42,922 nucleotides of DNA, taken from a virus. Taxonomy: Duplodnaviria > Heunggongvirae > Uroviricota > Caudoviricetes. The translations under genes and the position numbers were made by a program. Location: the IMG/VR virus record IMGVR_UViG_2728369185_000014. One strand, 5' to 3'. This document shows, piece after piece, positions 3,647 through 23,467 of the stretch (positions within the stretch are counted from its first letter, which is position 1; each line of letters begins with the position of its first letter). The notes below the pieces were generated by a model. It did not search any database and had not been told where the DNA came from. It saw only the letters and a program-made list of their open reading frames with translations.

Positions 3647-4428
3647 GCTGCCACCTTCTGCTCAGTGGCTTTCTGTTTCAGGAATCCAAGAGCTTTCACT
3701 GCTTCGGCCTGTGTCAGTTCTGACGATGCGCGAATGTCGCGGCGAAATATCTGGGAACAGAGCGGCAATAAGTCGTCATCCCATGTTTTGTCCAGGGCAA
3801 TCAGCAGAGTGTTAATCTCCTGCATGGTTTCATCGTTAACCGGAGTGATGTCGCGTTCCGGCTGACGTTCTGCAGTGTATGCGGTATTTTCGACAATGCG
3901 CTCGGCTTCATCCTTGTCATAGATACCAGCAAATCCGAAGGCCAGACGGGCACACTGAATCATGGCTTTATGCCGTAACATCCGTTTGGGATGCGACTGC
4001 CACGGCCCCGTGATTTCTCTGCCTTCGCGGGTTTTGAATGGTTCGCGGCGGCATTCATCCATCCACTCGGTAACGCAGATCGGATGATTGCGGTCTTTGC
4101 GGTAAATCCGGCATGTACATGATTCATTGTCCTGCTCAAAGTCCATACCATCAAACTGCTGGTTTTCATTGATGATGCGGGACCAGCCATCAACGCCCAC
4201 CACCGGAACAATGCCGTTCTGCTTATCAGGGAAGGCGTAAATTTCTTTCGTCCACGGATTAAGGCCGTACTGGTTGGCGACGATCAACAATGCGATGAAC
4301 TGCGCATCGCTGGCATCACCTTTAAATGCCGTCTGGCGAAGAGTGGTGATCAGTTCCTGTGGGTCGACAGAATCCATGCCGACACGTTCAGCCAGCTTCC
4401 CTGCCAGCGTTGCGAGTGCTGTACTCAT
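3643..4428 (-). CDS. bet: Lambda Bet (Red-beta single-strand annealing protein)
   Basis: 261-aa protein, near-identical to lambda Beta as I recall it; start overlaps the exo stop. Confidence 0.95.
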
Positions 4429-4433
4429 CCGTT

Positions 4434-4730
4434 TTATACCTCTGAATCAATATCAGCCTGATGGTGAGCAATGGTTTCAACTATGTACCGGATGTGTTCT
4501 GCCATGCGCTCCTGAAACTCAACATCGTCATCAAACGCACGGGTAATGGCTTTTTTGCTGGCCCCGTGGCGTTGTAAATGATCGATGCATAGCGATTCAA
4601 ACAGGTGCTGGGGCAGGCCTTTTTCCATGTCGTCTGCCAGTTCTGCCTCTTTCTCTTCACGGGCGATCTGCTGGTAGTGACGCGCCCAGCTCTGAGCCTC
4701 AAGACGATCCTGAATGTAATAAGCGTTCAT
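4434..4730 (-). CDS. gam: Gam, short isoform (RecBCD inhibitor)
   Basis: 98 aa, [21 protein letters not shown]... matches lambda GamS; the upstream extension for the long isoform is out of frame here (see findings). Confidence 0.9.
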
Positions 4731-4805
4731 GGCTGAACTCCTGAAAATGGCTGTGAAAATATCGCCCGCGAAATGCCAGGCTGATTAGGAAAACAGGAAA
4801 GGGGG

Positions 4806-4949
4806 TTAGTGAATGCTTTTGCTTGATCTCAGTTTCAGTATTAATATCCATTTTTTATAAGCGTCGACGGCCTCACGAAACATCTTTTCATCGCCAATAA
4901 AAGTGGCGATAGTGAATTTAGTCTGGATAGCCATAATTGTTTGATCCAT
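4806..4949 (-). CDS. kil: Kil (host cell-division inhibitor)
   Basis: 47-aa [50 protein letters not shown] nested in the 89-aa track ORF; matches lambda Kil; start placed by hand. Confidence 0.75.
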
Positions 4950-5082
4950 TTTTTGGGACTCCTGGCTGATTAAGTATGTCGATAAGGCGTTTCCATCCGT
5001 CACGTAATTTACGGGTGATTCGTTCAAGTAAAGATTCGGAAGGGCAGCCAGCAACAGGCCACCCTGCAATGGCATATTGCAT
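4918..5082 (-). CDS. cIII: CIII (inhibitor of FtsH-mediated CII degradation)
   Basis: 54-aa [51 protein letters not shown].. translated by hand from the minus strand; below the 60-aa track cutoff; overlaps the kil start as in lambda. Confidence 0.75.
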   Translation of the reverse strand: MQYAIAGWPVAGCPSESLLERITRKLRDGWKRLIDILNQPGVPKNGSNNYGYPD

Positions 5083-5154
5083 GGTGTGCTCCTTATTTAT
5101 ACATAACGAAAAACGCCTCGAGTGAAGCGTAATTGGTATGCGGTAACGCCGCGC

Positions 5155-5523
5155 TCAGGCGGCCTTGATAGTCATATCATCTGAATCAAATATTCCTGAT
5201 GTATCGATATCGGTAATTCTTATTCCTTCACTACCATCCATTGGAGGCCATCCTTCCTGACCATTTCCATCATTCCAGTCGAACTCACACACAACACCAT
5301 ATGCATTTAAGTCGCTTGAAATTGCTATAAGCAGAGCATGTTGCGCCAGCATGATTAATACAGCATTTAATACAGAGCCGTGTTTATTGAGTCGGTATTC
5401 AGAGTCTGACCAGAAATTATTAATCTGGTGAAGTTTTTCCTCTGTCATTACGTCATGGTCAATTTCAATTTCTATTGATGCTTTCCAGTCGTAATCAATG
5501 ATGTATTTTTTGATGTTTGACAT
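5155..5523 (-). CDS. ea10: Ea10-like early protein
   Basis: 122-aa acidic protein (MSNIKKYIIDYDWKASIEIEIDHDVMTEEKL...) matching lambda Ea10 as I recall it. Confidence 0.75.
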   Translation of the reverse strand: MSNIKKYIIDYDWKASIEIEIDHDVMTEEKLHQINNFWSDSEYRLNKHGSVLNAVLIMLAQHALLIAISSDLNAYGVVCEFDWNDGNGQEGWPPMDGSEGIRITDIDTSGIFDSDDMTIKAA

Positions 5524-5705
5524 CTATTCATATCCTCATAGATAAAAAATCGCCCTCACACTGGAGGGCAAAGAAGATTTCCAATAATCAGAACAAGTCG
5601 GCTCCTGTTTAGTTACGAGCGACATTGCTCCGTGTATTCACTCGTTGGAATGAATACACAGTGCAGTGTTTATTCTGTTATTTATGCCAAAAATAAAGGC
5701 CACTA

Positions 5706-5906
5706 TCAGGCAGCTTTGTTGTTCTGTTTACCAAGTTCTCTGGCAATCATTGCCGTCGTTCGTATTGCCCATTTATCGACATATTTCCCATCTTCCATTA
5801 CAGGAAACATTTCTTCAGGCTTAACCATGCATTCCGATTGCAGCTTGCATCCATTGCATCGTTTGAATTGTCCACACCATTGATTTGTATCAATAGTCGT
5901 AGTCAT
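5706..5906 (-). CDS. ral: Ral (restriction alleviation protein)
   Basis: 66 aa MTTTIDTNQWCGQFKRCNGCKLQSECMVKPEE... matching lambda Ral. Confidence 0.85.
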   Translation of the reverse strand: MTTTIDTNQWCGQFKRCNGCKLQSECMVKPEEMFPVMEDGKYVDKWAIRTTAMIARELGKQNNKAA

Positions 5907-5976
5907 ACGGATAGTCCTGGTATTGTTCCATCACATCTTGAGGATGCTCTTCGAACTCTTCAAATTCTTCTTCCAT
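5890..5976 (-). CDS. Small acidic ORF (lambda orf28-like)
   Basis: 28-codon ORF MEEEFEEFEEHPQDVMEQYQDYPYDYDY read by hand; its stop overlaps the ral start. Confidence 0.4.
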   Translation of the reverse strand: MEEEFEEFEEHPQDVMEQYQDYPYDYDY

Positions 5977-6119
5977 ATATCACCTTAAAGAGTGGATTGC
6001 GGTAGTAAAGATTGTGCCTGTCTTTTAACCACATCAGGCTCGGTGGTTCTCGTGTACCCCTACAACGAGAAATCGGATAAACTCTATTCACCCCTACAGA
6101 GAGCAAAAGAGAAACGCCG

Positions 6120-6701
6120 ATGAACAACTCATGGTGGCAGGAACTAATGCATTTTTTCCTGCAAGGAATGACACTTAAACAGTTGATTCATATGCTAATC
6201 ATCCTGATCATATTGATTATTGTTATGCCGGTAAGCGTAAAAGAATGGATAAACCTGCATAATCCAGAAATCCTTCCTCATTACTGGATGTATTACATCC
6301 TGTTGTTTTGCGTTAGCTATGTGCTTAACGGCGTTGTTAATTCCGCTTATCACGCTGTGACTGAAAGAATTGAGGTATTCGCTGCTCAGAAGCGCAAATC
6401 TAAAGAAGAAAAATATGTGCAAGATTTGTTTGATTCGTTAACTCTTGGAGAAAGAGCGTATTTGGCATTCGCTGTAGCCGCTAATAACCAGCTACAAACG
6501 GAAAAGGGCGCTCATGAATCAATTTCATTGCTCAAAAAAGGACTCCTCGTTCGAAGGCCTCCTGCTGTTGGATATCCTGATACCGACCGTTTCGTTATCC
6601 CTGAAAGCTATAGACATGAGTGCTACATTAGGTTTGCCGGGAAGGCAGACAGCCTTATGGATGAACTTATCGCTCAGGATAAGCATGGCAAAAACAAGTA
6701 A
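6120..6701 (+). CDS. sieB: SieB superinfection-exclusion protein
   Basis: 193 aa with an N-terminal membrane segment (MLIILIILIIVMPV), matching lambda SieB; plus-strand, opposite to the flanking early genes. Confidence 0.85.
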   Translation: MNNSWWQELMHFFLQGMTLKQLIHMLIILIILIIVMPVSVKEWINLHNPEILPHYWMYYILLFCVSYVLNGVVNSAYHAVTERIEVFAAQKRKSKEEKYVQDLFDSLTLGERAYLAFAVAANNQLQTEKGAHESISLLKKGLLVRRPPAVGYPDTDRFVIPESYRHECYIRFAGKADSLMDELIAQDKHGKNK

Positions 6702-12290: not shown

Positions 12291-12300
12291 NNNNNNNNNN
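12291..12300. other. Assembly gap (10 N), probable scaffold join
   Basis: Run of n characters; the sequence on each side belongs to different parts of a phage map. Confidence 0.99.
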
Positions 12301-13405: not shown

Positions 13406-13661
13406 AAATAATTTGTTTCTAAACGACTAAAATATGGAGGCTCTTATATTTATATGAGCCTCGTTTTATGCTTTTTGTTAATGTCTTTATTTTTTTATGT
13501 ATTCTTTTGTGCTTTCAAGATTATGGCGTAAGAAAATTGCAATACGATTATTGTTGTATATTCAAGATAATGTGACCTTAATTGTCTTTTTAAATAAAAA
13601 TTAAACAAAAATTATATCTCACCACTAAGGTTTATAAAAGCATACGTTAGCAGGTGTCACC

Positions 13662-15188
13662 ATGAAAAAAGCCATAGCATATATGCGATTTTCATCACCA
13701 GGTCAGATGTCTGGCGACTCATTAAACCGACAGAGAAGACTTATTGCTGAATGGTTAAAGGTAAATAGTGATTATTATCTTGATACCATAACATATGAAG
13801 ATTTAGGATTAAGTGCATTCAAAGGAAAGCATGCACAATCAGGAGCTTTTTCGGAATTTTTAGATGCTATAGAGCATGGTTATATATTGCCAGGAACTAC
13901 ATTGTTAGTTGAAAGTCTGGACAGACTTTCAAGAGAAAAAGTCGGTGAAGCGATTGAGCGTCTGAAATTGATTTTGAATCACGGTATTGATGTTATAACT
14001 CTTTGCGATAATACAGTCTATAATATTGACTCTTTGAATGATCCATATTCATTAATAAAAGCCATACTTATAGCACAAAGGGCAAATGAAGAAAGCGAGA
14101 TAAAGTCAAGTCGGGTTAAATTATCATGGAAGAAAAAACGGCAGGATGCACTGGAGTCAGGCACGATTATGACGGCGTCTTGTCCGAGATGGCTCTCCTT
14201 AGATGACAAAAGAACGGCTTTTGTTCCAGACCCCGACAGGGTGAAAACTATTGAGCTAATTTTTAAACTCAGGATGGAAAGGCGCTCATTGAATGCAATA
14301 GCCAAGTATTTAAATGATCATGCTGTAAAGAATTTCTCAGGAAAAGAAAGTGCATGGGGACCTTCTGTAATTGAAAAATTATTAGCGAATAAAGCTCTGA
14401 TAGGTATATGCGTACCTTCATATCGTGCAAGAGGTAAAGGAATAAGTGAAATCGCTGGCTATTATCCCAGAATCATATCAGATGATTTGTTTTACGCTGT
14501 GCAGGAAATTCGGTTGGCACCTTTTGGTATTAGCAATAGTAGCAAAAATCCTATGTTGATAAATCTACTTCGAACAGTTATGAAGTGCGAGGCTTGTGGT
14601 AATACCATGATTGTTCATGCGGTATCTGGAAGTTTGCATGGCTATTATGTTTGTCCGATGAGAAGACTGCATCGATGTGACAGGCCATCAATAAAGAGAG
14701 ATTTGGTTGATTATAATATCATTAATGAGTTGCTTTTTAATTGTAGTAAAATCCAACCAGTTGAAAACAAGAAAGATGCTAATGAAACTTTAGAGTTGAA
14801 AATTATTGAGCTCCAGATGAAAATTAATAATTTAATTGCTGCATTATCTGTTGCGCCTGAAGTTACCGCTATAGCAGAAAAAATCAGAGTATTAGATAAG
14901 GAATTACGAAGGGCTTCTGTATCATTAAAAACTTTGAAGAGTAAAGCGGTGAGCTCACTTGGTGATTTTCATGCTATTGACTTAACCAGTAAAAATGGGC
15001 GAGAGCTATGTCGTACACTTGCCTATAAAACATTCGAAAAAATCATAATCAATACAGATAATAAAACCTGTGATATCTATTTTATGAATGGCATTGTTTT
15101 TAAACACTATCCTTTAATGAAAACAATATCCGCCCAGCAGGCGATAAGTACTCTCAAATATATGGTTGATGGTGAGGTTTATTTTTGA
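13662..15188 (+). CDS. ybcK: Large serine recombinase (YbcK-like)
   Basis: 508 aa; N-terminal resolvase-type catalytic region (AIAYMRFSSPGQ...) and a Cys-rich C-terminal extension; AT-rich. Confidence 0.8.
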   Translation: MKKAIAYMRFSSPGQMSGDSLNRQRRLIAEWLKVNSDYYLDTITYEDLGLSAFKGKHAQSGAFSEFLDAIEHGYILPGTTLLVESLDRLSREKVGEAIERLKLILNHGIDVITLCDNTVYNIDSLNDPYSLIKAILIAQRANEESEIKSSRVKLSWKKKRQDALESGTIMTASCPRWLSLDDKRTAFVPDPDRVKTIELIFKLRMERRSLNAIAKYLNDHAVKNFSGKESAWGPSVIEKLLANKALIGICVPSYRARGKGISEIAGYYPRIISDDLFYAVQEIRLAPFGISNSSKNPMLINLLRTVMKCEACGNTMIVHAVSGSLHGYYVCPMRRLHRCDRPSIKRDLVDYNIINELLFNCSKIQPVENKKDANETLELKIIELQMKINNLIAALSVAPEVTAIAEKIRVLDKELRRASVSLKTLKSKAVSSLGDFHAIDLTSKNGRELCRTLAYKTFEKIIINTDNKTCDIYFMNGIVFKHYPLMKTISAQQAISTLKYMVDGEVYF

Positions 15189-15299
15189 GTAATAATCACT
15201 TTTTCAACCGTGCTATAGTAAGAAAGTTAGGTAAGTACAATAAAATTATCTATCCTGAACGAAGCGTCCTGAGCTATGGTTTTACTATAGGGACTGCCA

Positions 15300-15617
15300 A
15301 TGGATGCTGGCGTTCTCGTTCTAGCAGTTCAACAATCCCCAATCACAAAACAATTCACTGATAACGAACTTTGCACACTCGCCTGGTTATGGCGAGCAGG
15401 GAATGTGATGTTAATTGCCTACCAGAACGTTACTCATCTTCTTCAGGATGCGGAGCATGGTGAAGCTGGTCACTTCACTTCCATCGAGCAAGAATATCCC
15501 CAGATACTCAACAGAGCGCGAGCAATCCTCGTCCGAGAAACGGCACATGTAAAACTTCAGCCGTGGCAGGATGATAAGTGGAGTCGAGTATTGCCGTATT
15601 TGCGTCAAATCTGTTAG
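15300..15617 (+). CDS. Hypothetical protein (105 aa)
   Basis: Track ORF only; no motif recognised; could be a gene remnant. Confidence 0.3.
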   Translation: MDAGVLVLAVQQSPITKQFTDNELCTLAWLWRAGNVMLIAYQNVTHLLQDAEHGEAGHFTSIEQEYPQILNRARAILVRETAHVKLQPWQDDKWSRVLPYLRQIC

Positions 15618-15821
15618 GAGTATAGCCGCCAGCCATGAGTGTTGTATTAAAACAAGGATGTCTATATATGGGATAGCGAGAGTATGAATATCAGTTATTT
15701 TGAGAGTTAACTGATTGTGAAATTAGTTTTTTTCACAAACGAGTGGGGTTACTATGATGAGTGTTCTAATGCATAGGGAACACCTAATTTTTTCAATGAA
15801 TTCAAATTGATAGGATCAAAA

Positions 15822-16751
15822 ATGGCACAACAGAGAACTACCTCCCTCAGATCCATACCTTTAGACTTAGATGTTAAGCAAGAGGCTGTCATTAACGGTA
15901 TAGAAATGGGGGTACTCGATAACGGAATTCCGTACCTTACTCAGAATGGGTTGGCAAATGTTTGTGGTGTTCAGCGTTTGCGAATCAAGGAAATTACCGA
16001 TGAGTGGGCTCAATCTGTTGAGAACGGTATTTTCAAAAAAGGAAGAATGACTTTTATTGGTACATATCTTCTTAATGAAGGTTTTACAGATGAAAAACTT
16101 TATATACCAATAATTCGAAATGGTGTTGAGTACCATGCTTATCCAGATGTTGTATGCATGGCTATACTTGAATACTATGCCTTTGAAGCAAAACAAGCAG
16201 AAAGTGAGACTGCAATTAGATCTTACAGAGAGCTTGCTAAAAAAGGCCTCAAGACATTTATATACGAGGCGCTAAAATATCAACCGGAGGACCCGTGGAG
16301 GCATTACCATGACAGAGTATCTTTATTAAAAGATAAGGGAACCATACCTGATGGGTATTTCATTATATTTAATGAAATTGCAGGTATGATGGTAGATCTC
16401 ATCAATGCTGGATTAGCGATTAATCAGCATACCGTACCTGATGGCAGTGTTGGTTCTTGCTGGGCGCGTCACTGGAAAGCAAAGGGGTTAGCAACAGAAT
16501 TTGGAGAAAGAGTAGACTGTGAGCATTATTACCCTGAAGATTTTCTTCAGGCAAGTTCCAATCCTCAGATCATTAATGCCTATCCTGATTCTGCATTGTC
16601 AGAGTTTCGTAGATGGTTTAAGCATGAATATTTAACCACAAAGTTCCCACCGTATATTCTTAAAAAATCAAACGTGCTTCCTGGTGGTACAGAAGATGCT
16701 AATCGTCTGATAGAAGCTTTCAAAAAATCAGAGCTAGAAAATAAACCATAA
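15822..16751 (+). CDS. Uncharacterised nin-region protein with a possible KilA-N/Bro-N-like N-terminal domain
   Basis: ~309-aa ORF from the ATG 6 nt after AGGA (the track ORF starts at an upstream TTG); N-terminal ...INGIEMGVLDNGIPYLTQNGLANVCGV... resembles phage KilA-N/Bro-N DNA-binding domains; AT-rich. Confidence 0.5.
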   Translation: MAQQRTTSLRSIPLDLDVKQEAVINGIEMGVLDNGIPYLTQNGLANVCGVQRLRIKEITDEWAQSVENGIFKKGRMTFIGTYLLNEGFTDEKLYIPIIRNGVEYHAYPDVVCMAILEYYAFEAKQAESETAIRSYRELAKKGLKTFIYEALKYQPEDPWRHYHDRVSLLKDKGTIPDGYFIIFNEIAGMMVDLINAGLAINQHTVPDGSVGSCWARHWKAKGLATEFGERVDCEHYYPEDFLQASSNPQIINAYPDSALSEFRRWFKHEYLTTKFPPYILKKSNVLPGGTEDANRLIEAFKKSELENKP

Positions 16752-16947
16752 TTGTTTTTTGGCTTTTGATTTTACATAATCATTTTGCCATAATCATGTC
16801 ATCGGAGCCTGAACAACTCCGGTGACTTCTGCGCTAAACGGGGACGTTTATGCGCACATACAATCCAAACTCTCTTCTCCCTTCACAGATGCAGAGATGC
16901 ACCTGCGATTTTTTGCATCCAGCGTTTGACCTCTGCGGAGGTGAAGC

Positions 16948-18215: not shown

Positions 18216-18352
18216 TGTTTGAGTTTAATATGGCAGAATTTCTTCGCCACCGCTGGGGGCGTCTGCGCTTATATCGTTTCCCCGGTTCTGTTTTGACCGA
18301 TTACCGAATACTGAAGAATTACGCCAAAACCCTGACAGGAGCAGGAGTATGA
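18212..18352 (+). CDS. ylcG: YlcG-like small protein
   Basis: 46-codon [26 protein letters not shown]... overlapping the rusA stop; read by hand. Confidence 0.55.
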
Positions 18353-18411
18353 AGTCAGAGATAACAATCAACTAATACTGTTTTGTTGATTTTTGCTTGT
18401 AATTGGCGTTC

Positions 18412-18421
18412 NNNNNNNNNN
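18412..18421. other. Assembly gap (10 N)
   Basis: Run of n characters between ylcG and Q. Confidence 0.99.
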
Positions 18422-18443
18422 CCTGATTTTGTGGAGAAAGTTG

Positions 18444-18800
18444 ATGCGTGATATGTATGAAGTAATGGATCGTTGGGGAGCTTGGGCTGCTTCAGACAAT
18501 AGCGGAGTGGACTGGCAGCCGATAGCGGCTGGTTTCAAGGGACTTTTACCTCATGGCAAAAAGTCACGGATTCAGTGTGATGATGACGAAGGCATCATGA
18601 TAGACAGTTGTGTGGCTCGGTTGAGAAGGTATAAACCAGAGGAATATGAGCTCATCATCGCCCACTTTGTTATCGGTATCTCATTACGCACTATTGCGAA
18701 GAAGAGAAAATGCTCTGATGGCACAATTAGGAAGGAACTGCAAACTGCAATGGGGTTTGTTGACGGCTGTTTAGCAATGTTAGCTTATAGTATGGCATAA
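18444..18800 (+). CDS. Q: Q-like late-gene antiterminator (short type)
   Basis: 118 aa MRDMYEVMDRWGAWAASDNSGVDWQPIAAGFKGLLP...; W-G-A-W-A motif and Cys cluster as in short Q/QuuD-type antiterminators; position after nin and before lysis genes. Confidence 0.7.
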   Translation: MRDMYEVMDRWGAWAASDNSGVDWQPIAAGFKGLLPHGKKSRIQCDDDEGIMIDSCVARLRRYKPEEYELIIAHFVIGISLRTIAKKRKCSDGTIRKELQTAMGFVDGCLAMLAYSMA

Positions 18801-19994
18801 AAAATAAAATAGATTTACTGCCGATTTTTCAAAAAAGACTGGGAACTGTTTATATCCAACGTAAATAAGGCCTCCATAAAACATGGCTGATGCGAGATAT
18901 TTAACAGTTCTCATCCTTTTTTTAGCTTTATCAATCAAACCTGTAATGCTACTCTTAATACTATCTGCATTATCTTTGATTTCTTTATTTTCTTCAAACT
19001 TTAAATACTTATCGAAAGCGGACTCCACTCGAGAACGTAAGTTGTCGAATGTTTCATTGAATATCTCAATAGAAATGTAATTGACTTTTTTTATCATCCA
19101 AAGTCCTGCGATAATCAATATTGCTTCGGTTGTTTCATTAGCCTTCACTAAGCCACCAGCTGCTATTAATGCACCGGGAATAGTCAATGCTTTTGTCTGA
19201 TTAGATGATATGAATTCGTTAATTTTACTCGTGAACTCAAGATTTTTCTCATCGAGTTCGTTAAGAATTTTATTTACAGAAAACCTCTTTGTGTAAATCT
19301 CATATAGTTCATCATATTTTTTCCTGACGAGTTCAGTAGAGTTAAGCAAGTCAAAGAAATTGAACGTACCATTTGCTTTAAATACTTCGTTTATGGCTGA
19401 GCGTATAACGAGCTTGCGCTCGCTTTTGTGTAAATCATTGATTTTTATTGTGTCGAGAAGCTCCTTTATAATTTCATATTTAAGAGACGAGTTCGATAAG
19501 CGATTAATCTCGCTATATTGTAAAAAATGCGTGAGTTCGACTGTATAACTTTTGTCTTCATTGGTGAAAAATAAGACAGAGCAGTCACTGTTATGATGAT
19601 CAGCAATTAATGAAAGGATATCTTTCCACATAAAGAAAATATGGATTTTTTCGATGCTTTCATTCTTAGAAGTAGGGAGTATTAACGGCGTTCCGATGAT
19701 ATAATTTTTCGGAAGAGCGTTTTGGGTGTTTACTCTAGACCAAAAAGACTCAACATTCTCATAAATTATAGCATCATCCCAAGATGAAGCTTGGCGATCT
19801 AGCCAAATTTCATTATTTTCGATGCAGGTTGTTGCCTTTTTATAACCTATAGATTGTAACAGTCTAATTATTTCAGAACTATTTACAATAACAATGCTTT
19901 CTTCAAGACTTATGACAGTGTAGTAGCCCTCAACTCTGCTTGAGGCTCCGTTAATAATCTGCGCTAATCTTGATAAGTCATCAGCAATTGTCAT
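18780..19994 (-). CDS. Uncharacterised protein with C-terminal transmembrane helices (404 aa), second gene of the Q-S cassette
   Basis: AT-rich ORF; hydrophobic segments near the C-terminus (ALTIPGALIAAGGLV, AILIIAGLWMI, YLASAMFYGGLIYVGY); its 3' end overlaps the Q 3' end convergently. Confidence 0.55.
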   Translation of the reverse strand: MTIADDLSRLAQIINGASSRVEGYYTVISLEESIVIVNSSEIIRLLQSIGYKKATTCIENNEIWLDRQASSWDDAIIYENVESFWSRVNTQNALPKNYIIGTPLILPTSKNESIEKIHIFFMWKDILSLIADHHNSDCSVLFFTNEDKSYTVELTHFLQYSEINRLSNSSLKYEIIKELLDTIKINDLHKSERKLVIRSAINEVFKANGTFNFFDLLNSTELVRKKYDELYEIYTKRFSVNKILNELDEKNLEFTSKINEFISSNQTKALTIPGALIAAGGLVKANETTEAILIIAGLWMIKKVNYISIEIFNETFDNLRSRVESAFDKYLKFEENKEIKDNADSIKSSITGLIDKAKKRMRTVKYLASAMFYGGLIYVGYKQFPVFFEKSAVNLFYFLCHTIS

Positions 19995-19996
19995 TA

Positions 19997-21172
19997 TTAG
20001 CTGTCTCTATATCTTTTGAGTTCATCATAATTTGCCTGACTCAATTTTATCACAATTTCGCATTTGTTGTCAGTGAGAATTACAGGCTTATTTGACTTTT
20101 CGTCTCCAATAGCTCCACGCATTATTTTCAACTTAAAATTATTGTCGTTATCTGCCACTTCAATTGTAAGCGCGCTTTCAGCTGCTTTAGGAGTTGGTTC
20201 AAATTGAGGGTCAATCTGGAAACCATTAAGATTAACAAAATCGACAAACGTTCCCTTACATTTGTGTGAATCAGTCAGGCATGAGTCAATTATTTTTGAA
20301 ATATCCTCTATCTTAACGGACTTATTTCCGTGTTTATCTTTTGATTTTTTTTCCAGTAAGGATTTAACTTCATTGTCAATAGTATCACGCAGTACACGAC
20401 CGAGTGAGTTTTTACTAGCAAAAATATCTATAGCACTGAATAATTGCTGAATGCTTCTTTTATTGTCCGAATCATGTCGGCAACCTAATGAGTCTTTGAA
20501 AAAATCGCTTTTAGATTTACCTTGCAAGAAATGTACATATGAGTCACCCTTGTTTTCTGGATAACTGGCTTCGAATAAAGTTAAATCGAACATCGCAGCC
20601 TGCCGTAAGGCATCGGTATTAATTGGATTTAATCTTGTTGGGGTCAACTTATCCGAATCAAAGTCATAGGCGCTTTGTTTATCAACCATTACGATTAGAA
20701 GTTTCCCCAAATCCTCTGGTTCGGTAGACTTATAGTGGATGAAAACAACGCTCCCCCCCTGAAGTTGGGCAACTCTCGATTCGTTATTAGCATTATGTTT
20801 AAGCTTCTCTATTATAGCTCTAGATAAATCAATGAATTCATTATTCTTATTAATGTATTTTTTTAGGATCGTAGGAATGGATGAAGGGTTGTGATCTGAG
20901 TCTAGGAAGTTATGAAATTTGTTTTTTCGGCTAAATTTTTTCTCAATTCTGGTTATGAATTCAGATGTGACTTCATTTTTTAGATCCCAAACTTCACCTA
21001 ATCGATAATCAAATGCTCTTGAATCATTTTTTTCAAGATTTGCTGTTACAGCACCAATAGGAAAGTACGATTGTTTGCCCAGCACTACAACATGAGGCGT
21101 GGCACCGCATTTATCGCAAGCTACAGTTGGGTCGTCAAGAACATTGCCACATTCTAAACAAGTTATATCCAT
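19997..21172 (-). CDS. Zinc-ribbon protein with a possible NdpA/YejK-like nucleoid-associated domain (391 aa), first gene of the Q-S cassette
   Basis: N-terminal CxxC...CxxC (CLECGNVLDDPTVACDKCG); central ...GGSVVFIHY...YVHFLQGKSKSDFF... resembles the YejK/NdpA family as I recall it; 2-nt gap to the downstream ORF. Confidence 0.55.
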   Translation of the reverse strand: MDITCLECGNVLDDPTVACDKCGATPHVVVLGKQSYFPIGAVTANLEKNDSRAFDYRLGEVWDLKNEVTSEFITRIEKKFSRKNKFHNFLDSDHNPSSIPTILKKYINKNNEFIDLSRAIIEKLKHNANNESRVAQLQGGSVVFIHYKSTEPEDLGKLLIVMVDKQSAYDFDSDKLTPTRLNPINTDALRQAAMFDLTLFEASYPENKGDSYVHFLQGKSKSDFFKDSLGCRHDSDNKRSIQQLFSAIDIFASKNSLGRVLRDTIDNEVKSLLEKKSKDKHGNKSVKIEDISKIIDSCLTDSHKCKGTFVDFVNLNGFQIDPQFEPTPKAAESALTIEVADNDNNFKLKIMRGAIGDEKSNKPVILTDNKCEIVIKLSQANYDELKRYRDS

Positions 21173-21288
21173 TATATATCCCGAATTATAAGAATGAATT
21201 TTTATGTGGCTGAAAATTCTATCAAAACACTAACGCGTACGCAAAAAATATCGTAATCTGTTAAGTGTGCTCACTTCGCCACACAGCT

Positions 21289-21320
21289 TAAACCCGCCAT
21301 CGAGCGGGTTTTGTCGTTTC
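21289..21320 (+). terminator. Putative intrinsic terminator (possibly tR'-like)
   Basis: AAACCCGCCATCGAGCGGGTTT hairpin followed by a T-rich tract on the plus strand, upstream of the holin; placed by hand. Confidence 0.4.
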
Positions 21321-21463
21321 TGGGTCTGGGGATTCCTTGGTCCTAGCCTATCCCGCAGTTATCCATTGACTCGGCTTCTTTGACGTTTCCGCTTCTGATT
21401 TGCGGTACATGATGTTTCCTCAATTTGCACCTGCTGTATCAGCGAGGTGAGAGATAACTACAA

Positions 21464-21790
21464 ATGCCTCATAACCCAAATACATGGCTGGAGTTGGTCC
21501 AGAGCTGGTGGCGTGGAGACACACCGCTGGGCGCAGTGATTATGTCGATTGTTATGGCTGGTTTACGTATTGCCTATTTTGGCGGTGGTGGCGGCTGGAA
21601 GCGAAAAACACTCGAAATTCTACTCTGTGGCGCTCTGACGCTGACTTTTGCATCCGCTCTTGAGTATGTCGGATGGCCTAAATCACTATCTGTTGCCATT
21701 GGTGGTGGGGTGGGGCTGATCGGTGTTGATGCTATTCGTGGGGCTGCAATGAGAGTAATCGGTAACAAGTTTGGTGGCTCTAAGGAGTAA
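21464..21790 (+). CDS. S: Holin (lambda S-like, class I)
   Basis: 108-aa track ORF with hydrophobic helices and a charged C-terminus, directly upstream of the endolysin; true start may be internal (dual-start holins). Confidence 0.7.
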   Translation: MPHNPNTWLELVQSWWRGDTPLGAVIMSIVMAGLRIAYFGGGGGWKRKTLEILLCGALTLTFASALEYVGWPKSLSVAIGGGVGLIGVDAIRGAAMRVIGNKFGGSKE

Positions 21791-22759: not shown

Positions 22760-23040
22760 TTATTGTGAGCAATACACACGCGCTTCCAGCGGAGTATAAA
22801 TGCCTAAAGTAATAAAACCGAGCAATCCATTTACGAATGTTTGCTGGGTTTCTGTTTTAACAACATTTTCTGCGCCGCCACAAATTTTGGCTGCATCAAC
22901 AGTTTTCTCCTGTCCAATTCCCGAAACGAAGAAGTGATGGGTGATGGTTTCCTTTGGTGTTACTGCTGTCGGTTTGTTTCCAACAGTAAACGTCTGTTGA
23001 GCACATCCTGTAATAAGCATTGCCAGAGCGGCAGAAAACA
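22760..23040 (-). CDS. bor: Bor lipoprotein (serum-resistance factor), 5' end lost in a gap
   Basis: The readable 92 codons (...LITGCAQQTFTV...ARVYCSQ) match lambda Bor; the N-terminus runs into the N-run. Confidence 0.8.
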
Positions 23041-23192
23041 NNNNNNNNNNNNNNNNNNNNNNNNNNNNNNNNNNNNNNNNNNNNNNNNNNNNNNNNNNNN
23101 NNNNNNNNNNNNNNNNNNNNNNNNNNNNNNNNNNNNNNNNNNNNNNNNNNNNNNNNNNNNNNNNNNNNNNNNNNNNNNNNNNNNNNNNNNNN
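23041..23192. other. Assembly gap (~152 N)
   Basis: Run of n characters; the lower boundary may be 23040. Confidence 0.95.
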
Positions 23193-23467
23193 TATAGGTG
23201 TACGCTCAGACTATTGGAGGAAGTTGGGGACACTCAGAATCCTGTGGAATGAAATAAACCGGTCTATCCGTCTATTACCCTTTTAGCTGCGCTGTATCGT
23301 CGCCGTATTCCCGCATTAACCATGACCGTAGCCCGACGGGGAATTCCTTCTGCGTGAGTGTGCGGGAATAATCAAAAACGATGCACACCGGGTTTTACTG
23401 TGCTGACAGACGCAGGGTTACCCTCATAGTCGCTTTTCCGGTGCGATGGTGGAAGAAACCGGGATGT

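Follow-up and report, generated by a model that had tools for sequence, protein, structure and literature searches.

DS-1, an anti-phage system named by DeWeirdt, Mahoney and Laub in their DefensePredictor study (bioRxiv 10.1101/2025.01.08.631726, January 2025; Science April 2026, PMC13092281), is the closest described counterpart of the locus considered here, a leftward two-gene cassette (18780..21172) in the virus record IMGVR_UViG_2728369185_000014 (Caudoviricetes), whose 42,922 nucleotides are the window to which all coordinates refer unless another locus is named. In Table S6 of that study, DS-1 carries the working ID D390 and is located at NZ_RRVY01000002.1 220602..222994, a unit of 2,393 bp that encodes WP_000355468.1 and WP_000150292.1 (PMC13092281). 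HHpred searches by the authors assigned NA37 to residues 42-382 of the first gene product and a NinF-like zinc beta-ribbon to residues 3-26 (NinF probability 86%), and the YejK domain was named among those newly validated in defence (PMC13092281). Candidate units, each with its predicted native promoter, were introduced into MG1655 on a low-copy plasmid and tested against 24 phages, in replicate (PMC13092281). In the available portion of Table S7, the reduction in efficiency of plating (EOP) conferred by D390, expressed as -log10 EOP, was 7.6 for Bas1, 2.7 for Bas26, 1.7 for both Bas3 and T3, 1.0 for T5 and 0.9, with small plaques, for T7, while SECphi27 showed small plaques only (PMC13092281).

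Two-gene operons that combine a YejK-like nucleoid-associated protein with an effector were described under the name PANGU in an April 2026 preprint (10.64898/2026.04.06.716658). In PANGU type II, the nucleoid-associated protein Pag2A is paired with Pag2B, which has a C-terminal transmembrane domain and an N-terminal acidic DNA-mimic domain; effectors across PANGU are modular, and enzymes such as toxSAS GRel and lysozymes are among them. In PANGU-Ecu, from a uropathogenic Escherichia coli (UPEC) strain, both genes are needed and the growth curves resemble those of abortive infection. Pag2A-GFP is found on the nucleoid and disperses upon T4 infection, Pag2A binds the N-domain of Pag2B with a dissociation constant (KD) of 19 nM, and T4 denA (EndoII) mutants escape the system, which leaves T1 and T5 unrestricted; the preprint leaves the manner of Pag2B activation open (10.64898/2026.04.06.716658). 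In Kiwa, sensing falls to the transmembrane protein KwaA, and the ejected phage DNA is bound by KwaB (PMC11785009).

The cassette is almost certainly DS-1

The initial annotation, made from the sequence alone, had placed two leftward open reading frames (ORFs) of 391 and 404 amino acids between the Q antiterminator and the holin, and their positions were correct. The first, DS-1A, occupies 19997..21172 and the second, DS-1B, 18780..19994, both on the minus strand and separated by 2 nt (…AGC TAA TA ATG…), so that the whole cassette spans 2,393 bp. At its base composition, the chance of a stop-free frame is ~5e-14 for 391 codons and ~2e-14 for 404 codons. DS-1A matched the NCBIfam model NF053868 (DS1_1_antiphage) at 451.4 bits, with a cut-off of 330, over profile positions 3-369 of 369, and DS-1B matched NF053869 (DS1_2_antiphage) at 375.2 bits, with a cut-off of 315, over positions 1-337 of 337; both are equivalog models with curated cut-offs (NCBIfam release 20). 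Moreover, DS-1A is the DS-1 gene 1 product of Table S8 at 391 of 391 residues and equals WP_000355468.1, and DS-1B agrees with the Table S8 sequence at all 399 printed residues and matches WP_000150292.1. Because both NCBIfam cut-offs are exceeded, the proteins are identical and the unit length is equal, the cassette can be identified with near certainty as DS-1, carried as anti-phage cargo by a lambdoid prophage. Gene order, intergenic spacing, unit length, proteins and domain calls are all the same as those published, and there is no difference at the sequence level.

The product names attached to the two models, 'nucleoid-associated anti-phage protein' for NF053868 and 'anti-phage protein' for NF053869, are both in use in recent RefSeq annotation. 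No family in PADLOC-DB v2 (2023) matched DS-1A or DS-1B, since this library is older than DS-1. DS-1 is thus already published, validated, represented by curated hidden Markov models (HMMs) and annotated in RefSeq, and our finding is a rediscovery by sequence rather than a new system. On this point the initial annotation, which did not recognize the pair as a named system, was mistaken; it had nevertheless been right about the domains and the functional class, and the phage-defence role that it proposed agrees with the protection shown experimentally for the identical unit with its native promoter (PMC13092281). What is new here is the conservation of the pairing across a family of 772 representatives, the Q-adjacent cargo hotspot, and the presence of Kiwa and of uncharacterized cassettes at the same site. 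For DS-1, the available text of the published study gives no mechanism, Q-adjacent hotspot, pairing across the 772 representatives or conserved acidic N-extension (PMC13092281). The remaining interest lies in how DS-1 works, in how it relates to PANGU type II, and in the hotspot beside Q with its alternative cassettes.

The cassette is markedly AT-rich, as had been noted, with a GC content of 34.9% compared to 49.5% and 49.4% in the flanks. A candidate sigma-70 promoter for the pair was found on the minus strand at 21225..21198 (TTGATA, a 16-nt spacer and AAAAAT; 9 of 12 consensus matches), ~26 nt upstream of the DS-1A start codon and within DNA that is specific to this cargo. Its TTGATA hexamer is retained in a Klebsiella copy of 83% identity.

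DS-1A is a YejK paralogue with an acidic N-terminal extension

The resemblance of the 391-residue protein to YejK/NdpA, proposed in the initial annotation, was borne out by the HMM search: residues 64-376 matched Pfam NA37 (PF04245) with an E-value of 1.2e-23 and 84.5 bits, against a gathering score of 24.6. E. coli YejK (9be2) was the sole relative of solved structure, with E-values of 1.2e-9 in phmmer and 4.3e-20 with the family profile. An AlphaFold2 (AF2) model of DS-1A had a mean predicted local distance difference test (pLDDT) score of 84.6, and its only significant match in the PDB was again 9be2 (Foldseek E = 3e-14, probability 1.0); the template modelling (TM) score of this pair was 0.43-0.49, a low value that is due to domain orientation. 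DS-1A thus has the NA37 fold and family in common with YejK (NdpA), a 37-kDa housekeeping protein, and the two are ~19% identical in the structural alignment. However, since DS-1A reached only 81.4 bits against the YejK equivalog model NF001557, whose cut-off is 341, it is by this measure a paralogue of the housekeeping protein and not its orthologue. Unlike YejK, DS-1A shares an operon with an effector and is borne by mobile DNA, and it carries an additional acidic N-extension of the putative zinc-ribbon type, of 35-40 residues.

This extension comprises an acidic CxxC...CxxC segment (residues 1-25; C5-x2-C8…C19-x2-C22) followed by a disordered linker (residues 26-33). The zinc ribbon called in the initial annotation was only partly upheld: the motif is present, and 20 of the 37 homologues in the alignment (the enterobacterial clade together with two distant members) retain all four cysteines, but the Pfam zinc-ribbon models scored below threshold (Zn_Ribbon_1, E = 0.07; DZR, 0.16). 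In relatives of the Pseudomonas type, the segment is replaced by a cysteine-free tail. The extension (residues 1-40, encoded at 21053-21172) is acidic in nearly all of the aligned homologues, with a net charge of -1 to -10 whether or not the cysteines are present; one homologue, with an N-extension of 7 residues, has a net charge of 0. The property conserved in the N-extension may therefore be its charge, instead of zinc binding, and the extension could serve as an in-cis DNA mimic or as an autoinhibitory tail.

DS-1B combines an alpha/beta domain with conserved hydrophobic helices

DS-1B belongs to no Pfam family, sequence and profile searches of the PDB were empty, and its AF2 model (pLDDT 85.3) had no significant structural match. 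The model consists of an alpha/beta domain (residues 1-210) followed by very long helices at 220-269, 271-284, 288-331, 337-383 and 385-403. The hydrophobic C-terminus that had been noted in this protein corresponds to three segments in the C-terminal third, at ~266-286, 287-307 and 362-386, which are marginal in this copy and are all kept across the family. Across the whole protein, conservation is highest at 226-284, in the helix that enters the first hydrophobic segment, and P273, A275 and A278 in this stretch are invariant. Membrane insertion of the predicted segments is plausible, and with three family-conserved hydrophobic segments and a hyperconserved stretch entering the first of them, we lean towards a membrane role for DS-1B. 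ClyA-family alpha-pore-forming toxins (MakA, AhlB, SmhB and ClyA) and CorA-type channels are counted among the closest known systems.

The N-terminal domain also contains strongly conserved positions. Across 33 diverse homologues, W72, P95, D187 and R193 are invariant, and D132, H133, E192 and R198 are nearly so (>= 90%).

The nucleoid protein and DS-1B are paired across a large family

A word-indexed search returned 69 DS-1B clusters. An exhaustive profile search of 1.84 billion representatives recovered 772 DS-1B representatives at E ≤ 1e-3, counted at 50% identity, and 363 at E ≤ 1e-10; nearly all members of the family are 380-450 residues long. In each neighbourhood examined outside Enterobacterales, an NA37 gene stands immediately upstream of the DS-1B homologue, and the two genes overlap. 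In P. aeruginosa, the gene next to NA37 was recognized by hhalign as a homologue of DS-1B (probability 100%, E = 1.4e-55), and three further distant relatives, in an isolate genome, a metagenome and the GCA_040148885.1 locus, are likewise downstream of, and overlap, an NA37 gene. Integrase, Bro-N, HicAB or transposase genes adjoin these pairs outside Enterobacterales. In the neighbourhoods examined, the NA37 gene and DS-1B form an obligate pair across Gammaproteobacteria and Betaproteobacteria. As the pairing is seen in such distant loci, it is the pairing that defines the system, independently of the zinc ribbon.

A model in which a displaced nucleoid protein activates a membrane effector

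In the model that we favour, the pair would be transcribed leftward from its own promoter in the lysogen, and DS-1A would coat the host chromosome. Degradation or remodelling of the nucleoid by an infecting phage would release DS-1A, and the free protein would then bind DS-1B at the inner membrane. DS-1B would in turn use its hydrophobic helical hairpin (268-304) and its C-terminal helix to damage the membrane, and the infected cell would no longer support phage growth, an outcome equivalent to abortive infection. We assign this whole mechanism, in which a freed YejK-like sensor activates a membrane effector, a probability of about 0.5.

The model is built by analogy with PANGU type II. Both systems are anti-phage and found in E. 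coli, and in both the YejK-like gene comes first and is followed by a partner with a C-terminal hydrophobic or transmembrane region; the DS-1B family is also large and spread across bacterial classes, like PANGU Cluster 2. The phages restricted by DS-1 (T5-like, T1-like and T7/T3) degrade host DNA, which fits a response to nucleoid damage; Bas1, of the BASEL collection, is a T1-like phage of the Drexlerviridae. A DNA-binding sensor combined with a membrane effector that acts by abortive infection, as suggested in the initial annotation, has been reported for this architecture in the PANGU preprint (10.64898/2026.04.06.716658), and by analogy such a scheme may apply to DS-1.

Several points weigh against this reading. 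The phage spectra of the two systems are opposite: PANGU-Ecu blocks T4 and not T1 or T5, whereas DS-1, in the available data, restricts Bas1, Bas26, T3 and T5. No D390 row for T4 is found in the available portion of Table S7 (PMC13092281), and this lack of a T4 effect makes DS-1 a poor fit to a model based on nucleoid degradation. The N-domain of Pag2B is described as a strongly acidic DNA mimic, whereas the modelled N-domain of DS-1B is alpha/beta in structure and only mildly acidic (net charge -7, isoelectric point 5.3; family mean charge -7.4), and its likeness to a DNA mimic is not obvious. In the E. coli protein, the hydrophobic segments are marginal, with Kyte-Doolittle values of 1.25-1.9 and Hessa free energies (dG) of +5 to +8 kcal/mol, so that constitutive membrane insertion is not assured; in distant relatives, the Kyte-Doolittle values of these segments reach 2-3. 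The want of any significant structural match for DS-1B counts in the same direction, and the likeness of DS-1 to PANGU type II is one of architecture and description. Finally, mechanistic work on DS-1 itself is absent from the available text of the DefensePredictor paper, whose Figure 5 concerns other systems (PMC13092281).

The two systems also differ in other respects. PANGU loci were chosen by their linkage to defence islands, while the DS-1 copy studied here lies in the Q-S site of a prophage, and the word 'zinc' has 0 occurrences in the PANGU preprint, while DS-1A has a CxxC...CxxC motif. A PDB search with the nucleoid-protein profile returned YejK only and no deposited PANGU structure that could serve as a bridge.

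A bolder combination of these observations is possible, although we consider it doubtful. DS-1, given its opposite spectrum, would not simply be a PANGU type II system; the N-extension of DS-1A would be an in-cis DNA mimic or a module that binds the trigger; DS-1B would be an intracellular pore-former that passes from a soluble to a membrane state in the manner of alpha-pore-forming toxins; and the gap between Q and the late promoter would be an undescribed defence hotspot. If this were true, the cassettes at the L006, L008 and L009 loci described below would be new defence systems.

The alternative that survives best, while still unlikely, reverses the roles of the two proteins along the lines of Kiwa. 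Here DS-1B would be the membrane sensor of phage attachment or DNA ejection, and a membrane-held DS-1A would coat the phage DNA and block its replication or transcription, so that the cell survives. YejK-type proteins bind DNA without sequence specificity, the acidic N-extension could keep DS-1A off the host DNA until it is triggered, and the near-absolute block of Bas1 (10^7.6) fits direct immunity as well as it fits abortive infection. Kiwa likewise consists of a membrane protein, which is the sensor, and a non-specific DNA binder (PMC11785009), and it is found at the same Q-adjacent site and in the same leftward orientation in another prophage (strain c1-17). However, Kiwa and DS-1 have no sequence relationship (PADLOC gave no match), the gene order is reversed, with the membrane gene first in Kiwa, and there is no sign that DS-1A is tethered to the membrane. 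In addition, the PANGU type II nucleoid protein is on the nucleoid before infection and disperses afterwards, and escape from PANGU maps to the phage nuclease EndoII, which points to the nucleoid protein as the sensor (10.64898/2026.04.06.716658).

It is less probable still that DS-1B is an enzymatic effector, in which the N-terminal alpha/beta domain would be catalytic or would bind a ligand and the hydrophobic helices would only anchor or oligomerize the protein. The invariant and near-invariant residues of this domain, the confidence with which it is modelled (pLDDT ~86-94) and the enzymes among the PANGU effectors would all suit such a role, but searches of Pfam, the NCBIfam domains and the PDB identified no enzyme fold in DS-1B, and conservation peaks in the helix that runs into the hydrophobic hairpin (226-284) and not in the N-domain. 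A native role outside defence, in which a prophage nucleoid protein and its membrane partner would help to regulate or maintain the prophage (silencing or addiction), with the plasmid phenotype as a mere by-product, is highly improbable: the AT-rich DNA does adjoin the late-gene switch, and some natural copies are disrupted by IS1 or frameshifts and the system is therefore dispensable to the host, but defence was measured in replicate from a low-copy plasmid with the native promoter (PMC13092281), the same site carries Kiwa elsewhere, and the homologous pairs outside prophage Q-S sites, beside integrases, HicAB and Bro-N, resemble typical defence cargo and not a lambdoid regulator.

The model of a released nucleoid protein acting on a membrane effector, and the mechanism of DS-1 more generally, can be approached through four testable features: the obligate pairing, the acidic/zinc-ribbon N-extension, the hyperconserved helix, and the spectrum that contrasts with that of PANGU-Ecu.

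DS-1 occupies a swappable cargo site next to Q

The DS-1 cassette was present in 105 of 5,426 complete E. coli genomes, and each copy was at least 99% identical and abutted the Q gene. It was also found on three plasmids, one of them a Klebsiella plasmid-borne prophage. Among 50,697 phage records, megablast detected no DS-1 DNA and tblastn no DS-1B homologue; DS-1 was thus seen only in prophages and plasmids. Some copies of DS-1A are decayed, by an IS1 insertion in one case and by frameshift truncation to 332 or 363 amino acids in others. The disrupted copies lie in NZ_OZ547033.1 (hit H1), at 5399-6394 of locus L001 and at 5301-6392 of locus L005, and since DS-1B is intact in these, the effector alone seems to be tolerated.

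The unit shared among prophage backbones begins at the Q start codon, and homology to the diverged Klebsiella copy stops exactly at a hairpin terminator, at 21312. In that copy (locus L002), Q, DS-1 and the leader block are found together at 83-85% identity on the K. pneumoniae plasmid pBio30 (NZ_CP093857.1 86020-88421), a 316-kb conjugative IncF plasmid; the copy lies in a prophage-like region, and the lysis cassette downstream of it differs. As judged from these alignments, Q, cargo and leader travel together as one module, both from one phage backbone to another and from genus to genus.

Within this unit, the cargo-specific, swappable DNA extends from 18767 to 21220 (~2.45 kb, 34.7% GC; no strand assigned). 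Its left junction was placed by alignment of the Q proteins, with the Q nucleotide matches stopping at query position 315, and its right junction by the leader matches, which start at query positions 45-59. A repeat search detected neither direct nor inverted repeats on either side of the cargo, and there is therefore no sign of transposition. The related Q alleles have 82-91% DNA identity, and the proteins of six loci share at least 86% identity as far as residue 108, while the last ~10 codons of Q vary with the type of cargo, such that every cargo brings its own Q C-terminal tail.

The same site holds other leftward cassettes in related loci. In strain c1-17 (locus L007), the cargo at 3870-5281 is KwaA/KwaB, the Kiwa system (PADLOC E-values 1.9e-83 and 2.3e-150). 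The cargo of L006 (3871-5598) consists of a TIGR04255-family gene and two unknown genes, and those of L008 (3864-5427) and L009 (3879-5986) are unknown gene sets; the unknown genes of these three loci had no matches in PADLOC or NCBIfam. The gap between Q and the leader is, on this comparison, a swappable cargo hotspot that holds DS-1, Kiwa or unknown cassettes, in agreement with the description of the Q-S interval as a moron site in the initial annotation. The uncharacterized cassettes of L006, L008 and L009 are candidate defence systems, and the Q-adjacent swap site is a practical place to seek further defence systems borne by prophages.

A conserved leader block accompanies Q

Immediately to the right of the cargo, at 21221..21312 on the plus strand, lies a conserved Q-linked block that contains the invariant palindrome GCGTACGC, an A-tract, the motifs TATnGT and TGTTAAG, and a hairpin terminator. 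The hairpin is located at 21290-21311 and is followed by a T-run, and the centroid fold retains an 8-bp GC-rich stem. The block is common to 7 of 7 aligned loci regardless of their cargo and of what follows it, which may be a lambda-type holin, a holin of another kind, or a methyltransferase accompanied by tRNAs. Since the block stays linked to Q while the genes downstream change, it probably represents the late promoter/Q-utilization site and tR' cognate to Q. A sigma-70 scan found no good plus-strand promoter within 21221-21312, and the placement of the late promoter in the block accordingly rests on linkage and not on a match to consensus.

With the block taken as the late promoter and tR', the cargo site would lie between Q and its own late promoter, and the cassette would probably be outside the late transcript. 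The initial annotation had described the pair as opposite to late transcription; it is indeed antiparallel to Q and to the lysis genes, but it is probably not covered by the late transcript, given that the block at 21221-21312 follows it. We infer that the cassette runs convergently towards the end of the early operon, which is rightward, rather than lying antisense within the late transcript. An Rfam search of 18300-21600 returned nothing credible, and the leader block matches no described RNA family. A link between the block and the StxS/Pas small RNAs was considered and dropped, as there was no sequence evidence for it.

Neighbouring genes and other features of the prophage

The Q antiterminator gene occupies 18444..18800 on the plus strand and encodes 118 amino acids (PF06530, E = 1.8e-46); its 3′ end and that of DS-1B overlap convergently by 21 nt. 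NinB, YbcO and RusA genes are found upstream of Q, and a lambda-family holin (PF05106, 5.7e-25), an endolysin and Rz lie to the right of the cassette. The window contains four masked runs of N, at 2660-2771, 12291-12300, 18412-18421 and 23041-23192; one of these is just upstream of the Q start codon, and another interrupts a leftward gene for a Bor/Iss-like lipoprotein (22760-23233).

The gene for BstA, a known abortive-infection protein of prophages, is present at 15807-16751 on the plus strand and encodes 314 amino acids (PADLOC 3.8e-121; phrog_6287, 1.9e-136), with no Pfam or NCBIfam match. As BstA and DS-1 are both present, the prophage carries at least two defence loci. BstA is adjoined by an Ant-like ORF of 105 amino acids (15300-15617) and lies in the nin region, where a second AT-rich island was found (13600-16800, GC 0.377). 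The same island includes a gene for a large serine recombinase of 508 amino acids (13662-15188), with Resolvase, Recombinase and Zn_ribbon_recom domains and a match to the phrog_95 integrase, and this mid-prophage recombinase may point to a nested element or to a segment that can invert or excise.

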